From assembly GCA_017534745.1 (NCBI GenBank), contig JAFXVX010000018.1, positions 1-64,000 on the forward strand: a stretch of DNA of 64,000 nt, written 5' to 3'. Both the position numbers and the translations under genes were made by a program. The notes under the pieces were generated by a model. That model saw only the letters and a list, made by a program, of their open reading frames with translations. It made no database searches and was not told the origin of the DNA. This document shows positions 1 through 5,925 of the stretch, in pieces; position 1 is the first letter of the stretch, and every line of letters begins with the position of its first letter. Source of the stretch: Bacteroidales bacterium (lineage in GTDB: Bacteria > Bacteroidota > Bacteroidia > Bacteroidales > UBA932).

Positions 1-35
1 CTTCTGTTTTCGGCCAGAAGGCCGAGCTCTCCGGC

Positions 36-827
36 ATGAATCTGTTCGTGCGTCTGAATGTTAATCGCGTGATGGCCGGAGAAAGTATGAACTTGAATGC
101 GCCAGAGTTTCTCGATTCCGTTCCTACCGCTTCCTATCGGCTGGTCGTTGTATCGCCGTCTATGATAATCTTCCAGGGCATCAAACATCAGTCCCTGCCG
201 AATAAGTTGGTCGTGAAGATGTCTTCGGCCATGAGCCCTGGCATCTCTAATGGCTGGAGCAAGACGGTGATCATCTCTCCCAACGCGGAGGATGACTGGG
301 GCGAAGCGGACCTAACTACGCTCTATACCAAGACTATTGGTGCAACGCCAGTGGTGGGGCAGAAGGTGTTCGTGGAAGTGTATTGGATGAACACGACTAC
401 CGGCGAGACGGGTCAGGAGATGCGGGATTCCGTTATCTGCTTGACGGACGAAGAAGCAGCCGCTTTGGTTGGTGGTTCCCGCGCACGTTACACTGAGGAA
501 GATATCAAGGAAGAAAGCTATGTGTCTGATTTTGACTTGGAGTACTCTACTGGCGGGCCGGCTGTAAATGTTGACATCATTAGCCAGGGAACACCGGGCG
601 TGTCCATGTCGGAAGTATTTTTGAAAGAACAGATTCCGGCCGACCGACTTGGAAAGATCTACGTTGTTAGTCGTTCCCTCCAAGAAGGGAAATATTATTT
701 CGGTCTGGTGGAAATGAATGTAAACAACACTTCCTATTACGGACCGTACATCAAAATCAATAACTACGCCGGCGGAATGTTCAAGCCCTGCGAGATTTTC
801 GGCCCCGGTATTATGCTCCCTCTTTAA
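36..827 (+). CDS. hypothetical protein; the reading frame stays open back to the window edge, so it may be 5'-truncated. First gene of the left-edge phage-like module
   Basis: 263-codon ORF with no in-frame stop back to position 3. Lower GC (about 50%) than the rest of the chromosome. No recognisable catalytic motif. Confidence 0.45.
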   Translation: MNLFVRLNVNRVMAGESMNLNAPEFLDSVPTASYRLVVVSPSMIIFQGIKHQSLPNKLVVKMSSAMSPGISNGWSKTVIISPNAEDDWGEADLTTLYTKTIGATPVVGQKVFVEVYWMNTTTGETGQEMRDSVICLTDEEAAALVGGSRARYTEEDIKEESYVSDFDLEYSTGGPAVNVDIISQGTPGVSMSEVFLKEQIPADRLGKIYVVSRSLQEGKYYFGLVEMNVNNTSYYGPYIKINNYAGGMFKPCEIFGPGIMLPL

Positions 828-839
828 TCGATTTGGACT

Positions 840-1964
840 ATGTTTAATGCAATAGGAAATAACTTTGGCGCCGGTGAGATTCGATTTAAGTCTTACCAGC
901 AACCTACTTACGTCATTCTGAATACTCGCTTCTTTATGGATCCGACTACTCCGGAGTATCAAGCTGCAGACGTACTGGAAATCACGGTGCCTAAGCTTTC
1001 TATAGACCGAAGCGCGAATAGTGTTGCGCTGATTGTATTCCGTGACAGGCGACAGAGTTATGGGTCTGCGGATTCTTATGATGCAGGTTCAGCGGCCCGT
1101 AGTTGGATCAAAGACGATCACACCATCTGTATTGAAAAGTTGGCTTGTATGGAAGGGAAAGGTAAACTGTGCGTATATATCTATTCGATGTATATCCAGC
1201 TGAATCAAGGTCTTCCCGCAGAACGTCACAGCAAGCTTGCCCTGAACGTGACGCCTTCTCCCATTTGCTGCGAGTTCTATAGAGATTCCTTTATTGTCGT
1301 GAAGGAAAAATGGGTATTCCTGTATATCGGGAAGGGAACAACGCCTTCTGGTGGTTCATATCAGCCCTGGGAGGGCGTGGTTGATAACCTTCCAACAGAT
1401 ATCCAGGCTATTGTCCCTTTCTATGGCGGCAACAACCAGTATAATAATAATTATACATCTATTTCCGAGGTAACACTGAAAGCCGGAAAGTATATCCATC
1501 CATATCGGACACCCTCTAACTCTGGAACTGGCATATTCGGCTATTTTGTCAGGGGGGATAATCAGGGAGAAGTAATCCCGGATATTCCAATGGCCGACGA
1601 TGTCACCCGGTGTCGTTTAATAATCAAGAATGAAGAGACGATGACTTCCTCATACGAGGCTGATTTTGTGATTGAGGGCTGTACTGGACCCATAAACGTT
1701 GGAGTTGTTGGGAAATTCGTTTCTCCAGGTGTTAACAATTATGCAGGTTATAATCTTAATGAGCAGTCGAAAAAGATTCCCGGTGGCAGTTTTAGTGTGG
1801 TATGTCGCACGAATGCTGGTCATAAGCTTGCCATCTATGATGCGTTTAGTTATTCTGAACTGAACAACTCCCAGAGAAATATCACCTGTCGCTGTTCGGC
1901 AGCCCGTTATGAGGAAGTAGAGGTTTTTGATACCAGTGTCTATACTTATAGTGGAACTAGATAA
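840..1964 (+). CDS. hypothetical protein, paralog A (N-terminal GNNFGxG domain with a long variable C-terminus)
   Basis: 374-aa ORF 13 nt after the previous gene. Its N-terminal ~70 aa (MFNAIGNNFGAG...AADVLEITVPKLSI) resemble the N-terminus of the next ORF (MLTIVGNNFGGN...QATVLEIKVDGLAI). Lower GC and a Gly/Asn-rich C-terminal part. Confidence 0.55.
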   Translation: MFNAIGNNFGAGEIRFKSYQQPTYVILNTRFFMDPTTPEYQAADVLEITVPKLSIDRSANSVALIVFRDRRQSYGSADSYDAGSAARSWIKDDHTICIEKLACMEGKGKLCVYIYSMYIQLNQGLPAERHSKLALNVTPSPICCEFYRDSFIVVKEKWVFLYIGKGTTPSGGSYQPWEGVVDNLPTDIQAIVPFYGGNNQYNNNYTSISEVTLKAGKYIHPYRTPSNSGTGIFGYFVRGDNQGEVIPDIPMADDVTRCRLIIKNEETMTSSYEADFVIEGCTGPINVGVVGKFVSPGVNNYAGYNLNEQSKKIPGGSFSVVCRTNAGHKLAIYDAFSYSELNNSQRNITCRCSAARYEEVEVFDTSVYTYSGTR

Positions 1965-1977
1965 AATGTAAGGTAAC

Positions 1978-2691
1978 ATGTTGACGATTGTTGGAAATAA
2001 CTTTGGAGGAAACTGCACCGGCCAGCAGCTGAAAGTGGTCCAGGATAAGTACCATGCAGTTGTAAATGGTTCCATTACCGTGGATACGAGCCAAGCCGCC
2101 TACAAGCAGGCTACTGTGCTGGAGATTAAAGTGGATGGACTGGCCATTAAGAATAGCGGGCCCGCTGCAGTATACGCGACCATGTTTTATGGCGGTATTC
2201 ATCGCATTACTGTTGTAAGGGCTTGGTTCGAGGATCAGGAAACGCTTCGCCTCGAGAAGGTCCTTGGCTGGCCGGAGAATTGCCAGTATCAGCTAACTTT
2301 CCAATGCCTGTTTATTCCTTTCGGTTTAGACTGCCTTGCCTATTACCAGAGAAAAACTGACGTTGCCCTGTCCGGAGCACCGGAGGGTTTCCTCATCTTC
2401 AACTCCAATGTGAAGTTGTTTGATGACTGGGCATTTTTTTTCATCACCTTCGAGAGATTTGCGACAGCTGAGCCGGAGACCCCGATTAACCTCACCCTGA
2501 CGGGCCTCACCGAAGACATCGAGCACGATTTCTTCCTGGTCTATAATGACCCGACCCTGGAGGAGTATGGTAGCGGCTATGTGGATCTGTCCCTGGTCGG
2601 GAACAGCCTTCTGATTGAAGATGGCCTTCCCGCACTGGCGAACGCAGCTGCCGGCCGGAAGTTCATCAAGGGAGCAGTAATATACGAATAG
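1978..2691 (+). CDS. hypothetical protein, paralog B (shared N-terminal domain, different C-terminus)
   Basis: 237-aa ORF whose N-terminal domain is paralogous to the 840-1964 product and whose C-terminal region is unrelated. Confidence 0.55.
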   Translation: MLTIVGNNFGGNCTGQQLKVVQDKYHAVVNGSITVDTSQAAYKQATVLEIKVDGLAIKNSGPAAVYATMFYGGIHRITVVRAWFEDQETLRLEKVLGWPENCQYQLTFQCLFIPFGLDCLAYYQRKTDVALSGAPEGFLIFNSNVKLFDDWAFFFITFERFATAEPETPINLTLTGLTEDIEHDFFLVYNDPTLEEYGSGYVDLSLVGNSLLIEDGLPALANAAAGRKFIKGAVIYE

Positions 2692-2694
2692 GAT

Positions 2695-2943
2695 ATGGCA
2701 CGTCAGGAACTCACAAAGCTTCAGGGCGCCATTGCCATCGCCAGCTTCTCTGCAGGAGTGCTGATTGCAATGGTGTGCCTGTTCTTCATCGAGCCCTTGG
2801 GCGAGATAGCCTCATCTGCCATCTCCATAGTGAGTGAGCTCCTGGTCCTGTGCGGTGCCATCCTGGGCGTAAAGGCCAGTTACGATACCAAGTTCCGGAA
2901 ATTTGAAAATGAACTTCGGCACAAGGCCGACAAACCTGAATAA
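2695..2943 (+). CDS. small two-TM membrane protein (holin-like topology)
   Basis: 82 aa with two hydrophobic helices (AIAIASFSAGVLIAMVCLFFI and ISIVSELLVLCGAILGV) and a charged C-terminus (KFRKFENELRHKADKPE). It starts 4 nt after the upstream gene. Confidence 0.45.
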   Translation: MARQELTKLQGAIAIASFSAGVLIAMVCLFFIEPLGEIASSAISIVSELLVLCGAILGVKASYDTKFRKFENELRHKADKPE

Positions 2944-2954
2944 GAACTTAACCT

Positions 2955-3428
2955 ATGAGATACGTTCTGCCACTGCTTTTCCTCGTGCTCGCTTCTGCCT
3001 GCAGTACTGTCCGCCAGCTTCCATCGACGGACAGTACCAAGGTGGAGGTCCGGACGGAGACGGTGTTCCAGAAGGATACTGTCTTTGTGGAGCTGCCGCT
3101 TGTTGTGGAGCGGGTCGCAGTCCTGGATACGGTCTCGCATCTGGAGAACGCCTATGCGGCTTCATCGGCCGTGGTTTCCGGCGGAGTCCTGAAGCACAGC
3201 CTGGAGACGAAGCCCGTGAAGATGCCGGCGGTTGTTGACAAAGAGATTGTGTATCGGGATTCCTTAATATATAGAGACCGGGTGCAGACCGTGACGGTTG
3301 AAGTGGAGCGCAAGTTGACCGGCTGGCAGCAGGCTAAGCTGAGGGTAGGGGGCTTCTGTTTCTTTGCTGTGATTTTGATTGGACTTTATTTCCTTATTAC
3401 TCAATTTATCAACCTTAAACTCTTCTGA
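2955..3428 (+). CDS. lipoprotein with a C-terminal transmembrane helix (unimolecular-spanin-like topology)
   Basis: 157 aa with an N-terminal lipoprotein signal (LLFLVLASAC-S) and a C-terminal hydrophobic helix (GGFCFFAVILIGLYFLITQFI). This topology matches u-spanins of phage lysis cassettes. Confidence 0.45.
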   Translation: MRYVLPLLFLVLASACSTVRQLPSTDSTKVEVRTETVFQKDTVFVELPLVVERVAVLDTVSHLENAYAASSAVVSGGVLKHSLETKPVKMPAVVDKEIVYRDSLIYRDRVQTVTVEVERKLTGWQQAKLRVGGFCFFAVILIGLYFLITQFINLKLF

Positions 3429-3430
3429 CT

Positions 3431-4123
3431 ATGAAGTACATTCCTTCCATCGCCTTCGAGGAGATGAGCGGCAGCGCCAAGGGCGTTACGGCCGCAAAGA
3501 TGAAGAACCGGAAGTACATCCGCAACCGCGGGTACGGCGGCAGCGTCCGCACTTCCGACCAGGCCAAGGTCAAGGGCATTTTCAAGCGCCTGACCACGAT
3601 GTGGAAAACGCTCACCAACGAGCAGATCCTCGCGTGGAACAAGCTTGCCCTGAGCCAGCAGGGCCGTTCTGTCCTGGGAACCGGCGCCAAGATCTCCGGC
3701 TCCAACCTGTTCACCCGCCTCAATTACTGGATCGTCGCTTGCGGCGGCCAGCCCGAGGTGACCCCTCCCACGCTCCTGGGCGTGGAGAACCCGTCCAGCG
3801 CCACCATCGTGTGCCAGGGCAATACCTTTACCTTCAAGCTGGACCAGGCTCTCGCTGATAACGGCGGCATCTTCCTGGTCATCGAAGCCACCGAAGGTCA
3901 GTCCAATGGCGTAAGCCGCGCCCACAGCAAGGCCGTTGCCATCAAGATGGTGGAAGAGCCCACCGCGGTCGCCATCGACATCCGTGCCGACTACGTGGCC
4001 AAGAACGGTGCTCCCAGCGCCGCAGCGCCGAAGATTTTCTTCCGCTACTACTACGTCAACTCCAGCACCGGCGAGAAGTCCGGCACCATGCTGGCGGAGT
4101 GCAAGTGGACTCCGGGGGCCTAA
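3431..4123 (+). CDS. hypothetical protein (GC3-rich)
   Basis: 230-aa ORF directly following with a 2-nt gap. Very high third-position GC, unlike ORFs 1-3. No motif recognised. It is followed by a terminator. Confidence 0.5.
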   Translation: MKYIPSIAFEEMSGSAKGVTAAKMKNRKYIRNRGYGGSVRTSDQAKVKGIFKRLTTMWKTLTNEQILAWNKLALSQQGRSVLGTGAKISGSNLFTRLNYWIVACGGQPEVTPPTLLGVENPSSATIVCQGNTFTFKLDQALADNGGIFLVIEATEGQSNGVSRAHSKAVAIKMVEEPTAVAIDIRADYVAKNGAPSAAAPKIFFRYYYVNSSTGEKSGTMLAECKWTPGA

Positions 4124-4175
4124 TCAAAGGCCATCCTCAATTCTTGCCCTTTTAACGGGCGAGGGGACAAAAAGA

Positions 4176-4210
4176 TTTCCTGCCTTCCTTTCGGGGGGCA
4201 GGATTTTTTT
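4176..4210 (+). terminator. rho-independent terminator (7-bp stem TCCTGCC/GGCAGGA followed by T7)
   Basis: The hairpin followed by TTTTTTT is seen directly in the sequence, downstream of the 3431-4123 ORF. Confidence 0.55.
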
Positions 4211-4307
4211 GTGTATTTCCAGACGTATGGCGTGGCGGGTTCCCGGATAGTTCACCGGTCGGACCCGCCCAAAAGCAATCAAAGTATAGGGGAGGATAGT
4301 AAAAGAA

Positions 4308-4353
4308 ATTACGCATAAATTCAGCAAGTTTTATGCGTAAATTTATGCGTAAG
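4308..4353. repeat. 13-bp inverted repeat ATTACGCATAAAT / TTTATGCGTAAAT followed by a direct copy TTATGCGTAAG; candidate protein-binding or att-associated site
   Basis: Seen directly in the sequence: inverted copies at 4308-4320 and 4330-4342 and a direct copy at 4343-4353, about 35 nt from the tRNA-Ala 3' end. Confidence 0.4.
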
Positions 4354-4386
4354 TGCCTTAAGTGACTGATTTTCAGTCTGTTCCGT

Positions 4387-4459
4387 GGAGCATAGGAGAA
4401 TCGAACTCCTGACCTTTTGAATGCCATTCAAACGCTCTACCAACTGAGCTAATACCCCG
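4387..4459 (-). tRNA. tRNA-Ala (anticodon GGC)
   Basis: Reverse complement GGGGTATTAGCTCAGTTGGTAGAGCGTTTGAATGGCATTCAAAAGGTCAGGAGTTCGATTCTCCTATGCTCCA. 7-bp acceptor stem with a G3:U70 pair (Ala identity element), GCTCAGTTGGTAGAGC D-arm, anticodon loop AT-GGC-AT, GGTTCGATTCC T-arm. CCA is not encoded. Confidence 0.85.
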
Positions 4460-4614: not shown

Positions 4615-5550
4615 TTGGGCGAAATATTTTGGGCTATGCAAACAAAAGGCGATTTTTTCGAGCGGGAGCGGGAGTGCGAACGCTTATTTGAGGCGGCAGG
4701 GCCGTTCTGGTTTTTTACGACAGAGGGGCTGGACCGGCTTTTATACAGTAGCCGGGAGGAGTTTATCGCCGGAACGAATATCCTTGCTATATCGGCGGCG
4801 AAATCCGGAGTGACTGTCATCAGCGACACACAGATGAGCAATCACCATCATGTGATGGCCAGGGGATCGTTGTCACAGGCCGGAGCATTCAGGGAAATAT
4901 TCCGGGATAAGAGCCGGAGATACCAGTTGGCTCTGGGTAACAAGTCGTTGAAGGACTGGGACATCCGGATAGACGCGACCGAAGATGTGAAGGCTTTCAG
5001 AAACCGTATCGTATATATCGACCGAAATGCCTACGTCGCCCGCCGGGACAGCACCCCGACTGGTTATCCGTGGGGATCCGGGCACCTGATGTTCAACGGC
5101 ACACTCTGGATGATGTCGGAAGGCTCTCCGTGGGGGACGCTCAGTATTGATAAACGGCGTTGCATATGCCGTTCACACGATATTGATCTGCCCTCCTCTT
5201 ACCGGGTGCTTGACGGGATGATTCTCCGGAGCAGTTTTATAGATTATCAGCAGACAGAATCCCTGTTCCACAGCGCAAATCAGTATTTTTCCCTCCTGTC
5301 CCGGCACGGAGAGTCCGACGTGGAAATCGCGCAAATGCTTGGCGAGGGGATTCAGCTTCCGAACGAGGAGGTGTTCCAGATCGTGGCGCAGTGGCACCGT
5401 GGACGGTCATTGAGGGAGCTTACGCCGGTTGAAAAGGCCCTCGCGGCGAAGCGGATGAAACTGCGCCTCTCCTCCTCCAACAAGCAAATTACCCAGGTGC
5501 TGCAACTCCCCCCGGAGGAGGTTGAGCGCCTGTTCCCGGTGCCGCGGTAG
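4615..5550 (+). mobile_element. IS200/RAYT-like Y1 (HUH) tyrosine transposase domain protein with a ~150-aa C-terminal extension
   Basis: 311-aa ORF. Motifs align with E. coli RayT/TnpA(REP): GPFWFFTTEG vs GTWFFTVNL (N-terminal beta-strand), NHHHVMA vs EHMHCIW (HUH region), IVYIDRNAYVARR...GYPWGSG vs YIYINPVKHGWV...DWPFSTF (catalytic Tyr helix and YPW motif). Spacing between motifs is about 55 aa. Confidence 0.6.
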
Positions 5551-5559
5551 GGGATGGGG

Positions 5560-5925
5560 CCGGCAGGAGAGCTGCCGCCGGAAAAAGGGGCGGAAATCCG
5601 TCCGCAGGGTGTGTAGGCAGGGCTTACTGCCGGGAAAAGTAGCGGAAATCCGTCCGCAGGGTGTGCTGACCGGGCCTGCTGCCGGGAAAAGTAGCGGAAA
5701 TCCGTCCGCAGGGTGTGCTGGCGAGGCTTACCGCCGGAAAAAGGGGCGGAAATCCGTCCGCAGGGTGTGTAGGCAGGGCTTACTGCCGGGAAAAGGTGCC
5801 GAAAATCCGTCCGTGGGGTGTGCTGGCGAGGCTTACCGCCGGAAAAAGGGGCGGAAATCCGTCCGCAGGGGGTGTAGGCAGGGCTTACTGCCGGGAAAAG
5901 TGCCGAAAATCCGTCTGCGCGCCGG
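5560..5925. repeat. tandem array of about 6.5 copies of a ~59-bp unit (consensus near CTGCCGGGAAAAGTAGCGGAAATCCGTCCGCAGGGTGTG[CTGGCGAGG/TAGGCAGGG]CTTA); REP/BIME-like
   Basis: Seen directly in the sequence. Units contain short palindromes (GCGGAaatccgTCCGC, GGCAGggcttaCTGCC). The array lies between convergent gene ends (the transposase-like gene and nth). Confidence 0.8.

Follow-up and report, generated by a model that had tools for sequence, protein, structure and literature searches.

A recurrent gene cassette beside a tRNA-Ala gene in a Bacteroidales bacterium forms the right arm of a small integrative element, most likely satellite-like or virus-like

We analysed the left end of a 64,000-nt stretch of a Bacteroidales genome (contig JAFXVX010000018.1, hereafter the window), where a block of six open reading frames (ORFs) occupying positions 1–4384 adjoins a tRNA-Ala gene. 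We found that this block constitutes the right arm of a small integrative element which targets tRNA genes and occurs in multiple copies, and that the cassette formed by the six genes is the constant module of that element. All six ORFs lie on the + strand: ORF1, of which the last 274 codons run from the window edge to position 827, ORF2 (840–1964, 374 aa), ORF3 (1978–2691, 237 aa), ORF4 (2695–2943, with two transmembrane (TM) segments), ORF5 (2955–3428, with a lipoprotein signal and a C-terminal TM segment) and ORF6 (3431–4123), the most conserved gene of the cassette. Their protein families are called here P350 (ORF1), P247 (ORF2 and ORF3, the latter being a second P247), P85 (ORF4), P157 (ORF5) and P230 (ORF6). 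An earlier interpretation made from the letters alone, which we refer to as the sequence-only reading, had described six tightly packed co-directional ORFs with gaps of 2–13 nt, the first of which was open to the window edge. Our measurements agree on both points, with gaps of 12, 13, 3, 11 and 2 nt in order and a frame in ORF1 which is open to base 3. The strong terminator which had been said to close the block is also present, as an intrinsic terminator at 4178–4213 on the + strand (an 11-bp stem at 4178–4203 with 7 G–C pairs, then a T run; TTTTTTTGTG), and is conserved in related elements. It is followed by a right-end (att arm) region at 4214–4384 and by tRNA-Ala(GGC), which ARAGORN places at 4385–4458, 1–2 nt away from the 4387–4459 given earlier. 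Because the tRNA gene runs on the minus strand, the block lies on its 3′ side, as the sequence-only reading had it, and the 3′ end of the tRNA is the insertion point.

The six genes differ in composition. The GC content of ORF1 to ORF6 is 0.507, 0.445, 0.510, 0.530, 0.534 and 0.619 respectively, compared to 0.556 for the whole window, and GC at third codon positions (GC3) is 0.43 in ORF2, 0.61 in ORF1 and ORF3 and 0.86 in ORF6, compared to 0.73 ± 0.06 in 30 long host ORFs. The mixed composition which had been suggested for the block is thus genuine and is most marked for ORF2; the figure of about 60% GC quoted for the chromosome was slightly too high. The sequence-only reading had matched none of the ORFs to a housekeeping family. 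In our searches none of the six proteins, nor a paralogue named P238 which is described below, had a significant match in Pfam, PHROGs, NCBIfam or PADLOC, and profile searches of the P350, P247 and P230 alignments against the PDB gave nothing below E = 0.02. ORF1, ORF2, ORF3 and ORF6 contain no signal peptide or TM segment and no lipobox or type IX secretion system (T9SS)-type signal. The window contains no homologue of the amidase (endolysin), integrase, primase or helicase genes which accompany the cassette elsewhere, in line with the earlier statement that no integrase is present. The left edge of the window probably coincides with an assembly break, since an independent contig (L002) begins at exactly the same base and another (L001), which is identical to the window across their overlap, reaches just 155 nt further. 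Exact-protein look-ups made to extend the window leftwards returned short contigs only.

We compared the block to approximately 100 related loci (labelled L001 etc.). More than 1246 homologues of ORF6 were found, the best 120 of which were 78–94% identical and all came from Bacteroidales metagenomes or metagenome-assembled genomes (MAGs), mostly from the rumen. Scanning one genome per species yielded 240 loci, several MAGs held 2–4 copies of the cassette (four in RUG619), and at 50% identity the ORF6 superfamily comprises about 2,400 cluster representatives. Members of the element family occur solely in rumen and gut Bacteroidales, often with several copies in one genome. A contig end lay upstream of ORF6 within 10 kb in 59 of 80 loci which were fetched and within 4.5 kb in 38 of them, a pattern typical of repeated or strain-variable elements.

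Synteny was kept in more than 60 of the approximately 100 loci, with a fixed gene order of P350, P247 (sometimes duplicated), P85 and P157 (optional, and always together) and P230. The tandem P247 duplicate was only seen in some elements (L019, L025, L034, L041, L044, L056, L057, L063, L068, L070, L078, L080, L092, L100 and L101). A functional-looking three-gene form (P350-P247-P230) lacks the P85/P157 pair. In L004–L007 (14710–20693) this form adjoins genes for a Piwi-domain protein (a prokaryotic Argonaute, pAgo), a 946-aa protein and BrxL, which is a defence-island context. At the DNA level, positions 2707–4123 of the window (ORF4 to ORF6) and approximately 1–440 (part of ORF1) are conserved in most loci, and positions 440–2700 (the ORF1 C-terminus, ORF2 and ORF3) are not; these last three form the hypervariable, compositionally foreign part of the cassette. 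Identity to L011/L012 is accordingly a mosaic, at 98–99% for ORF6, 47% for ORF1 and 42% for ORF2. L102, one of the nearest relatives of the window, is 93% identical to its DNA over 4.5 kb and encodes an ORF2 protein with 97% identity.

The region between the terminator and the tRNA gene contains GACGTATGGCGTGG, three boxes of TTATGCGTAA and CTGATTTTCAG (4366–4376). A downstream arm of approximately 230–260 bp after ORF6 (4169–4399 in the window) is conserved among elements and adjoins tRNA-Ala in the window, L013, L016 and L022, tRNA-Phe in L100, L026 and L102, and non-tRNA sites in L012 (hisG) and L094–99 (a rhamnose operon). At all of these kinds of site, homology from element to element stops 8–15 nt inside the 3′ end of the tRNA or of a tRNA-like stub. 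In comparisons with elements which have no tRNA gene at this place the end points are 4392 (L012) and 4399 (L094–99), and short tRNA-like stubs are found at the right ends of L012 and L094. Judged from these alignments, the stop inside the tRNA is an att-type right end. The claim that the block is an arm of an integrated element ending at the 3′ end of a tRNA is thereby upheld, with the same arm now seen at two tRNA genes and at non-tRNA sites. In L102 the 93%-identical cassette lies beside tRNA-Phe(GAA) at 4814–4887 and in the window beside tRNA-Ala(GGC), so that near-identical cassettes occupy two different tRNA sites. A second att copy (a direct repeat of the tRNA 3′ end) was sought in L101 and L078 and none was convincing.

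The boxes in the arm are located at 4309–4318 (inverted), 4331–4340 and 4343–4352. All three occurrences of the 10-mer TTATGCGTAA in the 64 kb fall within 4309–4352, compared to an expectation of 0.05. Across elements the boxes take the form TTnTGCGTAA and the three change in concert (ATGCGTAA, CTGCGTAA, GTGTATAA), as would be expected for the sites of an element-specific recombinase or directionality factor; they are likely candidates for such binding sites. Among the window and L012, L100, L022, L016 and L094 the box variants are TTATGCGTAA, TTGTGCGTAA, TTCTGCGTAA and TTGTGTATAA.

Genes which could make up the rest of the element were found in two architectures. In loci of the same type as the window (L100, L012, L026, L016 and L097), the genes lying divergently upstream of P350 encode DUF3853, AAA_25 with HTH, a DUF6371 and Zn_ribbon_16 primase-like protein and an excisionase-like HTH_17 protein, and beyond these genes there is restriction-modification or other defence cargo. 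No integrase was found within 10 kb in relatives of this architecture (L012, L100). The intergenic region upstream of P350 in L102 and L001 is of the L012 type (97% and 94% identity to L012 respectively), which makes these flanks the best model for the DNA to the left of the window. The second architecture (L077, L078, L080, L101, L044 and L033) combines a PriCT_2/DUF3987 primase-helicase with a tyrosine integrase, which is placed between the cassette and the tRNA and has Phage_integrase, SAM_5 and Arm-DNA-bind_5 domains (L033, L044, L078 and L101). L101 is apparently near-complete at approximately 12.6 kb, bounded by the integrase and tRNA on one side, with its left boundary beyond view. The structured RNA comes first in it, followed by P238, the six genes, primase-helicase, HTH_17, a 253-aa gene, integrase and tRNA-Ala(GGC); its six-gene cassette has the same layout as that of the window at 79% DNA identity, and it has no particle genes. 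Across the families, the cargo includes restriction-modification systems, MmeI, PBECR3 and AbiE, with pAgo/BrxL as neighbours.

ORF1 and ORF6 are paralogues. Full-length P350 in related elements is approximately 350 aa long and residues 80–349 of the L012 homologue align to ORF1 at 47% identity, so the window lacks about 80 N-terminal codons of this gene. The N-terminal ~230 aa of P350 are paralogous to ORF6 (residues 1–230 of the L012 protein vs ORF6, 30% identity, E ~ 1e−20 (4e−20)) and its C-terminal ~120 aa are variable. P238 is a third paralogue which precedes P350 in about 25 loci and matches at 28% identity. All three families begin with an invariant N-terminal peptide and share a helical domain and an FN3-like sandwich, and P350 and many longer relatives also bear a variable C-terminal domain of binding type. 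In ORF6 this plan consists of the invariant N-terminal peptide MKYIPSIAFEEMSGSAKGVTA, a basic disordered stretch, the helical domain and an FN3/Ig-like sandwich. Longer ORF6 relatives (P0190, P0197, P0202, P0219, P0221 and P0058) carry at the C-terminus 2–5 divergent InlB B-repeats (Flg_new_2) or CHB_HEX_C/Fn3_assoc domains; this variety suggests that the ORF6 scaffold displays different binding modules. Two other ideas about these proteins were abandoned. ORF6 as a jelly-roll capsid protein with a basic arm is unsupported, the fold being an FN3/Ig sandwich, and a shufflon composed of inverted P230 paralogues and an adjacent recombinase was dropped because the paralogues have ~28% protein identity and no DNA repeats.

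ORF2 is an all-beta protein of the P247 family, made of a conserved N-terminal part of ~240 aa and an additional C-terminal domain. Of the six genes it has the lowest GC, and it is hypervariable. ORF3 is a shorter paralogue which has the N-terminal NNFG motif in common with it and aligns with ORF2 relatives. The structural neighbours of the ORF2 model were overwhelmingly viral attachment proteins, with modest scores: the receptor-binding proteins of TP901-1, p2 and PSA, adenovirus fibre knobs, reovirus sigma1 and a phage tail needle. Foldseek comparison to predicted viral structures gave weak results. The predicted fold of ORF2 resembles viral receptor-binding heads. It should be noted that, compared to the siphophage receptor-binding proteins (TP901-1 BPP/ORF49, p2 RBP and Listeria PSA gp15) and the adenovirus and reovirus fibre heads, P247 has no sequence similarity in Pfam, PHROGs or PDB profiles and no recognisable shoulder/neck, collagen or coiled-coil stalk, and that, unlike the siphophage proteins, it has no baseplate or tail genes nearby.

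ORF4 has hydrophobic segments at residues 13–31 and 42–60 and a charged C-terminal tail. Exactly two such segments are found in 28 of 30 family members, with about 11 charged residues in the last 25, and identity across loci is 70–90%. Class II holins likewise combine two TM segments with a highly charged C-terminal tail; the best comparison, to Phage_holin_3_6, was sub-threshold (E 0.056), and we describe ORF4 as holin-like by topology alone. ORF5 has a lipobox-type signal ending in LASAC (Cys16) and a C-terminal TM segment at 134–152, with the lipobox-type Cys kept in 37 and the TM segment in 33 of 41 family members. This predicted combination of an outer-membrane lipoprotein signal with a C-terminal inner-membrane anchor is like that of unimolecular spanins of the phage T1 gp11 type. 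As in holin/spanin pairs, the two genes are adjacent and P157 is always found with P85. An Amidase_3 gene was present near 13 of 48 loci with ORF4/ORF5 homologues and 0 of 13 without (p = 0.05, kinship ignored), so that it is only seen near cassettes having both. The pair differs from class II holins and unimolecular spanins in that the likeness is one of topology, with no family match above threshold and no endolysin in the window, and in that the pair is missing from the three-gene form of the cassette. The order proposed by the sequence-only reading, with variable tail-fibre-like genes followed by a holin-like and a u-spanin-like gene, is thus supported in part: the topologies are conserved and Amidase_3 goes with the pair, and the window itself has no endolysin gene.

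In 31 of 76 related loci (about 40%) we also found a stretch of approximately 1.25–1.5 kb with 62–64% GC, which the window does not have. It directly precedes P238 or, together with P238, is found downstream of the cassette on the other strand; examples are L008 5040–6450 (+), L037 4970–6404 (+), L055 4672–6386 (+), L101 ~1236–3200 (+), L004 13041–14304 (−) and L023 12370–13889 (−). It holds no ORF in any frame and has no match in Rfam 15. A gene in an alternative code or an rRNA upstream of P238 was ruled out by the absence of an Rfam match and by the presence of all three stops in all six frames. In a 3′ domain of 62 pairs, 97.5% of cells are paired and 28 pairs are changed on both sides; none of 500 shuffles reached 28 such pairs and slid controls gave 4–9. 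Three slices of the stretch had 32, 18 and 19 compensatory pairs, compared to 4, 4 and 0.7 in column-shuffled controls, and a covariance model matched at 134–251 bits on one strand only. This pattern of covariation suggests that the stretch is probably a new large structured non-coding RNA tied to the element family. In L065 one cassette is flanked by two units of this RNA and P238, and in some genomes two cassettes lie tail to tail (L055 7440–13711 and L057 82–8571); such arrangements hint at tandem or nested insertions or rearrangements.

We considered several explanations of the block. That the six ORFs are ordinary conserved chromosomal genes which happen to lie beside a tRNA, with no mobile element involved, would fit with the high conservation and GC3 (0.86) of ORF6 and with the lack of an integrase in the window, and we give this next to no credence: single genomes hold several copies of the cassette, which occurs in different genomic contexts beside different tRNAs and adjoins integrase, excisionase-like and primase genes, its right-end arm stops inside the tRNA and the composition of ORF2 is strongly foreign. 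The comparative data refute it. An ordinary tailed prophage of 30–60 kb, of which the block would be the late end (tail fibres and lysis) and whose genes for head, tail and integrase would be situated left of the window, is the interpretation which the sequence-only reading had put forward. The position at a tRNA 3′ end is consistent with it, as are the modelled resemblance of ORF2 to phage receptor-binding heads, the holin-like and u-spanin-like topologies and the Amidase_3 gene near the cassette in some relatives, and the left flank of the window's own copy is beyond view. However, Pfam and PHROGs searches of the flanks of related loci, together with precomputed Pfam tables, revealed within 7–10 kb of the cassette not one gene for a capsid, terminase, portal, tape measure or tail tube. 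The 7–10 kb upstream in the approximately 100 loci consist instead of replication and regulation genes, defence genes, the structured RNA or unrelated chromosomal genes, and in the nearest relatives (L102, L001, L012 and L100) the DUF3853, AAA_25 and primase genes come directly upstream. Large upstream proteins which had been candidates for tape-measure or tail proteins turned out to be a BspA-type leucine-rich repeat protein, a YobI ATPase, a glycerate kinase, an integrase and a primase-helicase. Moreover, L101, with an integrase and tRNA on one side, is only ~12.6 kb and carries no particle genes, blastn and tblastn against 50,697 phage genome records gave no DNA or protein match to the cassette, and only 3 of 2.9 million IMG/VR contigs carry it. 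The description as the late end of a tailed phage genome was thus not borne out, and we consider a tailed prophage very improbable.

The strongest competitor treats the cassette as non-viral cargo carried by an integrative, possibly mobilisable, element: an envelope adhesin or surface operon, or an unrecognised defence or competition system, which would diversify under selection by phages or competitors and of which ORF4 and ORF5 would be membrane components. The elements do bear variable cargo (restriction-modification, MmeI, PBECR3, AbiE and the neighbouring pAgo/BrxL), some P230 relatives have InlB B-repeat or CHB_HEX_C domains which are typical of surface proteins, the cassette is also found with no replication or integrase genes nearby, and FN3 and beta-sandwich folds also occur outside viruses. 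On the other hand, the part which stays constant across two unrelated primase/helicase types is the cassette and not the replication module, ORF1, ORF2, ORF3 and ORF6 carry none of the export signals sought (signal peptide, lipobox or T9SS-type), PADLOC gave no matches, the structural neighbours of ORF2 are overwhelmingly viral attachment proteins and the amidase is tied to the form of the cassette with ORF4 and ORF5. Taken as a whole, this explanation, including its account of diversification and of the membrane proteins, seems to us possible but doubtful.

Our preferred interpretation, which we hold with slightly better than even confidence, is that the block represents the right arm of a small integrative element which uses the 3′ ends of tRNA-Ala(GGC) and tRNA-Phe(GAA), that it is not a tailed prophage and that its cassette would encode proteins for the surface of a particle. 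In the proposed mechanism, the other arm, beyond the window, would supply excision and replication functions (DUF3853, an AAA_25 helicase-like protein, a DUF6371 zinc-ribbon primase and HTH_17). Once excised and replicated, the element would exit the cell in a virus-like particle, which could either be borrowed from a helper phage, as by a satellite, or be made of these unrecognised proteins. The cassette would provide host-recognition fibres or adhesins which diversify by recombination and, where present, ORF4 and ORF5 (and Amidase_3) may contribute to disruption of the envelope. The element is most likely satellite-like or a novel virus-like element.

Several observations weigh against this interpretation. 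No capsid, packaging or helper-interference gene was identified in the related loci, and we infer association with a particle rather than observe it. For the element in the window itself, the left end, attL and integrase lie beyond view, and many loci have no replication or integrase gene within 7–10 kb of the cassette; the cassette may be cargo, or some of its copies may be remnants. The link to the amidase is of borderline significance with relatedness uncorrected, the window has no endolysin gene, it is unusual for a gene such as ORF6 to sit downstream of 'lysis' genes, and the structural matches of ORF6 are generic FN3 domains only. The cassette was also absent from sequenced phages and from 72,556 plasmids, the three IMG/VR contigs being its only occurrences among these collections.

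Of the known systems, phage-inducible chromosomal islands (PICIs) and P4-type satellites come closest. These have an integrase, AlpA/HTH_17 and a primase-helicase within 10–15 kb, and relatives of the window's element have a tyrosine integrase, HTH_17 and either a PriCT_2/DUF3987 or a DUF6371 and AAA_25 primase-helicase, are approximately 12–13 kb long, lie at tRNA 3′ ends and carry defence cargo and no particle genes. The satellite gene set (integrase, AlpA-type HTH and primase/helicase, with no particle genes) is full in L101 and partial in L078, L100 and L097; for the window's own element it is predicted from flanks which are 93–97% identical. Unlike PICIs and P4, these elements have no recognisable packaging-redirection, capsid-remodelling or small-terminase gene and no known helper phage. 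Their constant module, composed of fibre/adhesin-like and lysis-type membrane families of unknown function, is not a known satellite feature, and many relatives add the ~1.4 kb structured RNA. We therefore describe them as closest to satellites of the PICI/P4 kind, with an unprecedented module. A literature search on DUF6371 or Bacteroides satellites returned nothing relevant. The elements are also reminiscent of the Charybdis elements, which Kirchberger & Luque (bioRxiv, 10.1101/2025.08.03.668216) describe as small marine elements lacking hallmark genes, with an accessory module (methyltransferases etc.), a conserved putative structural module in which variable, receptor-binding-like proteins resemble viral protrusions, and no recognisable capsid gene. 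Charybdis elements differ in their host (marine group II archaea), in their size (4.6 kb) and in lacking a comparable integrase/primase arm, and the likeness is one of analogy only.

A related idea goes further and sees in the cassette the structural core of a new virus-like element without known capsid or packaging genes, in which the RNA, in the approximately 40% of related elements that encode it, would be a scaffold, a packaged molecule or a regulator, P238, P350 and P230 would build or decorate the particle and the P247 heads and membrane proteins would participate. We consider this combination, with its role for the RNA, unlikely; if true, it would be a ribonucleoprotein mobile-element system without a described counterpart.

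Just past the tRNA, on its 5′ side and outside the element as delimited here, there is an ORF of 311 aa (4615–5550, +) for which Pfam, PHROGs, NCBIfam and PADLOC gave no match and of which none of the related loci has a homologue. In the GC-rich stretch between this ORF and an endonuclease III-like gene on the other strand, positions 5577–5915 hold a 52-bp unit repeated in tandem 6.5 times (or a 104-bp unit repeated 3.2 times), with 81–89% matches.

Elements integrated at tRNA genes are commonplace. The defining module of this family, however, is composed of protein families which are unannotated in Pfam, PHROGs, NCBIfam and PADLOC, and it is found widely, and in multiple copies, among rumen and gut Bacteroidales. 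The fact that the cassette breaks metagenome assemblies, with 59 of 80 loci near contig ends, explains why it has stayed invisible. A hypervariable, recombining locus whose products are predicted to have receptor-binding-like folds is the signature of an arms race at the surface of a cell or a particle. Should the elements prove to be satellites or viruses of a new type, they would be an unrecognised path by which genes move within a major gut phylum and, given that they carry restriction-modification, Abi and further defence genes, would also supply host-range determinants.

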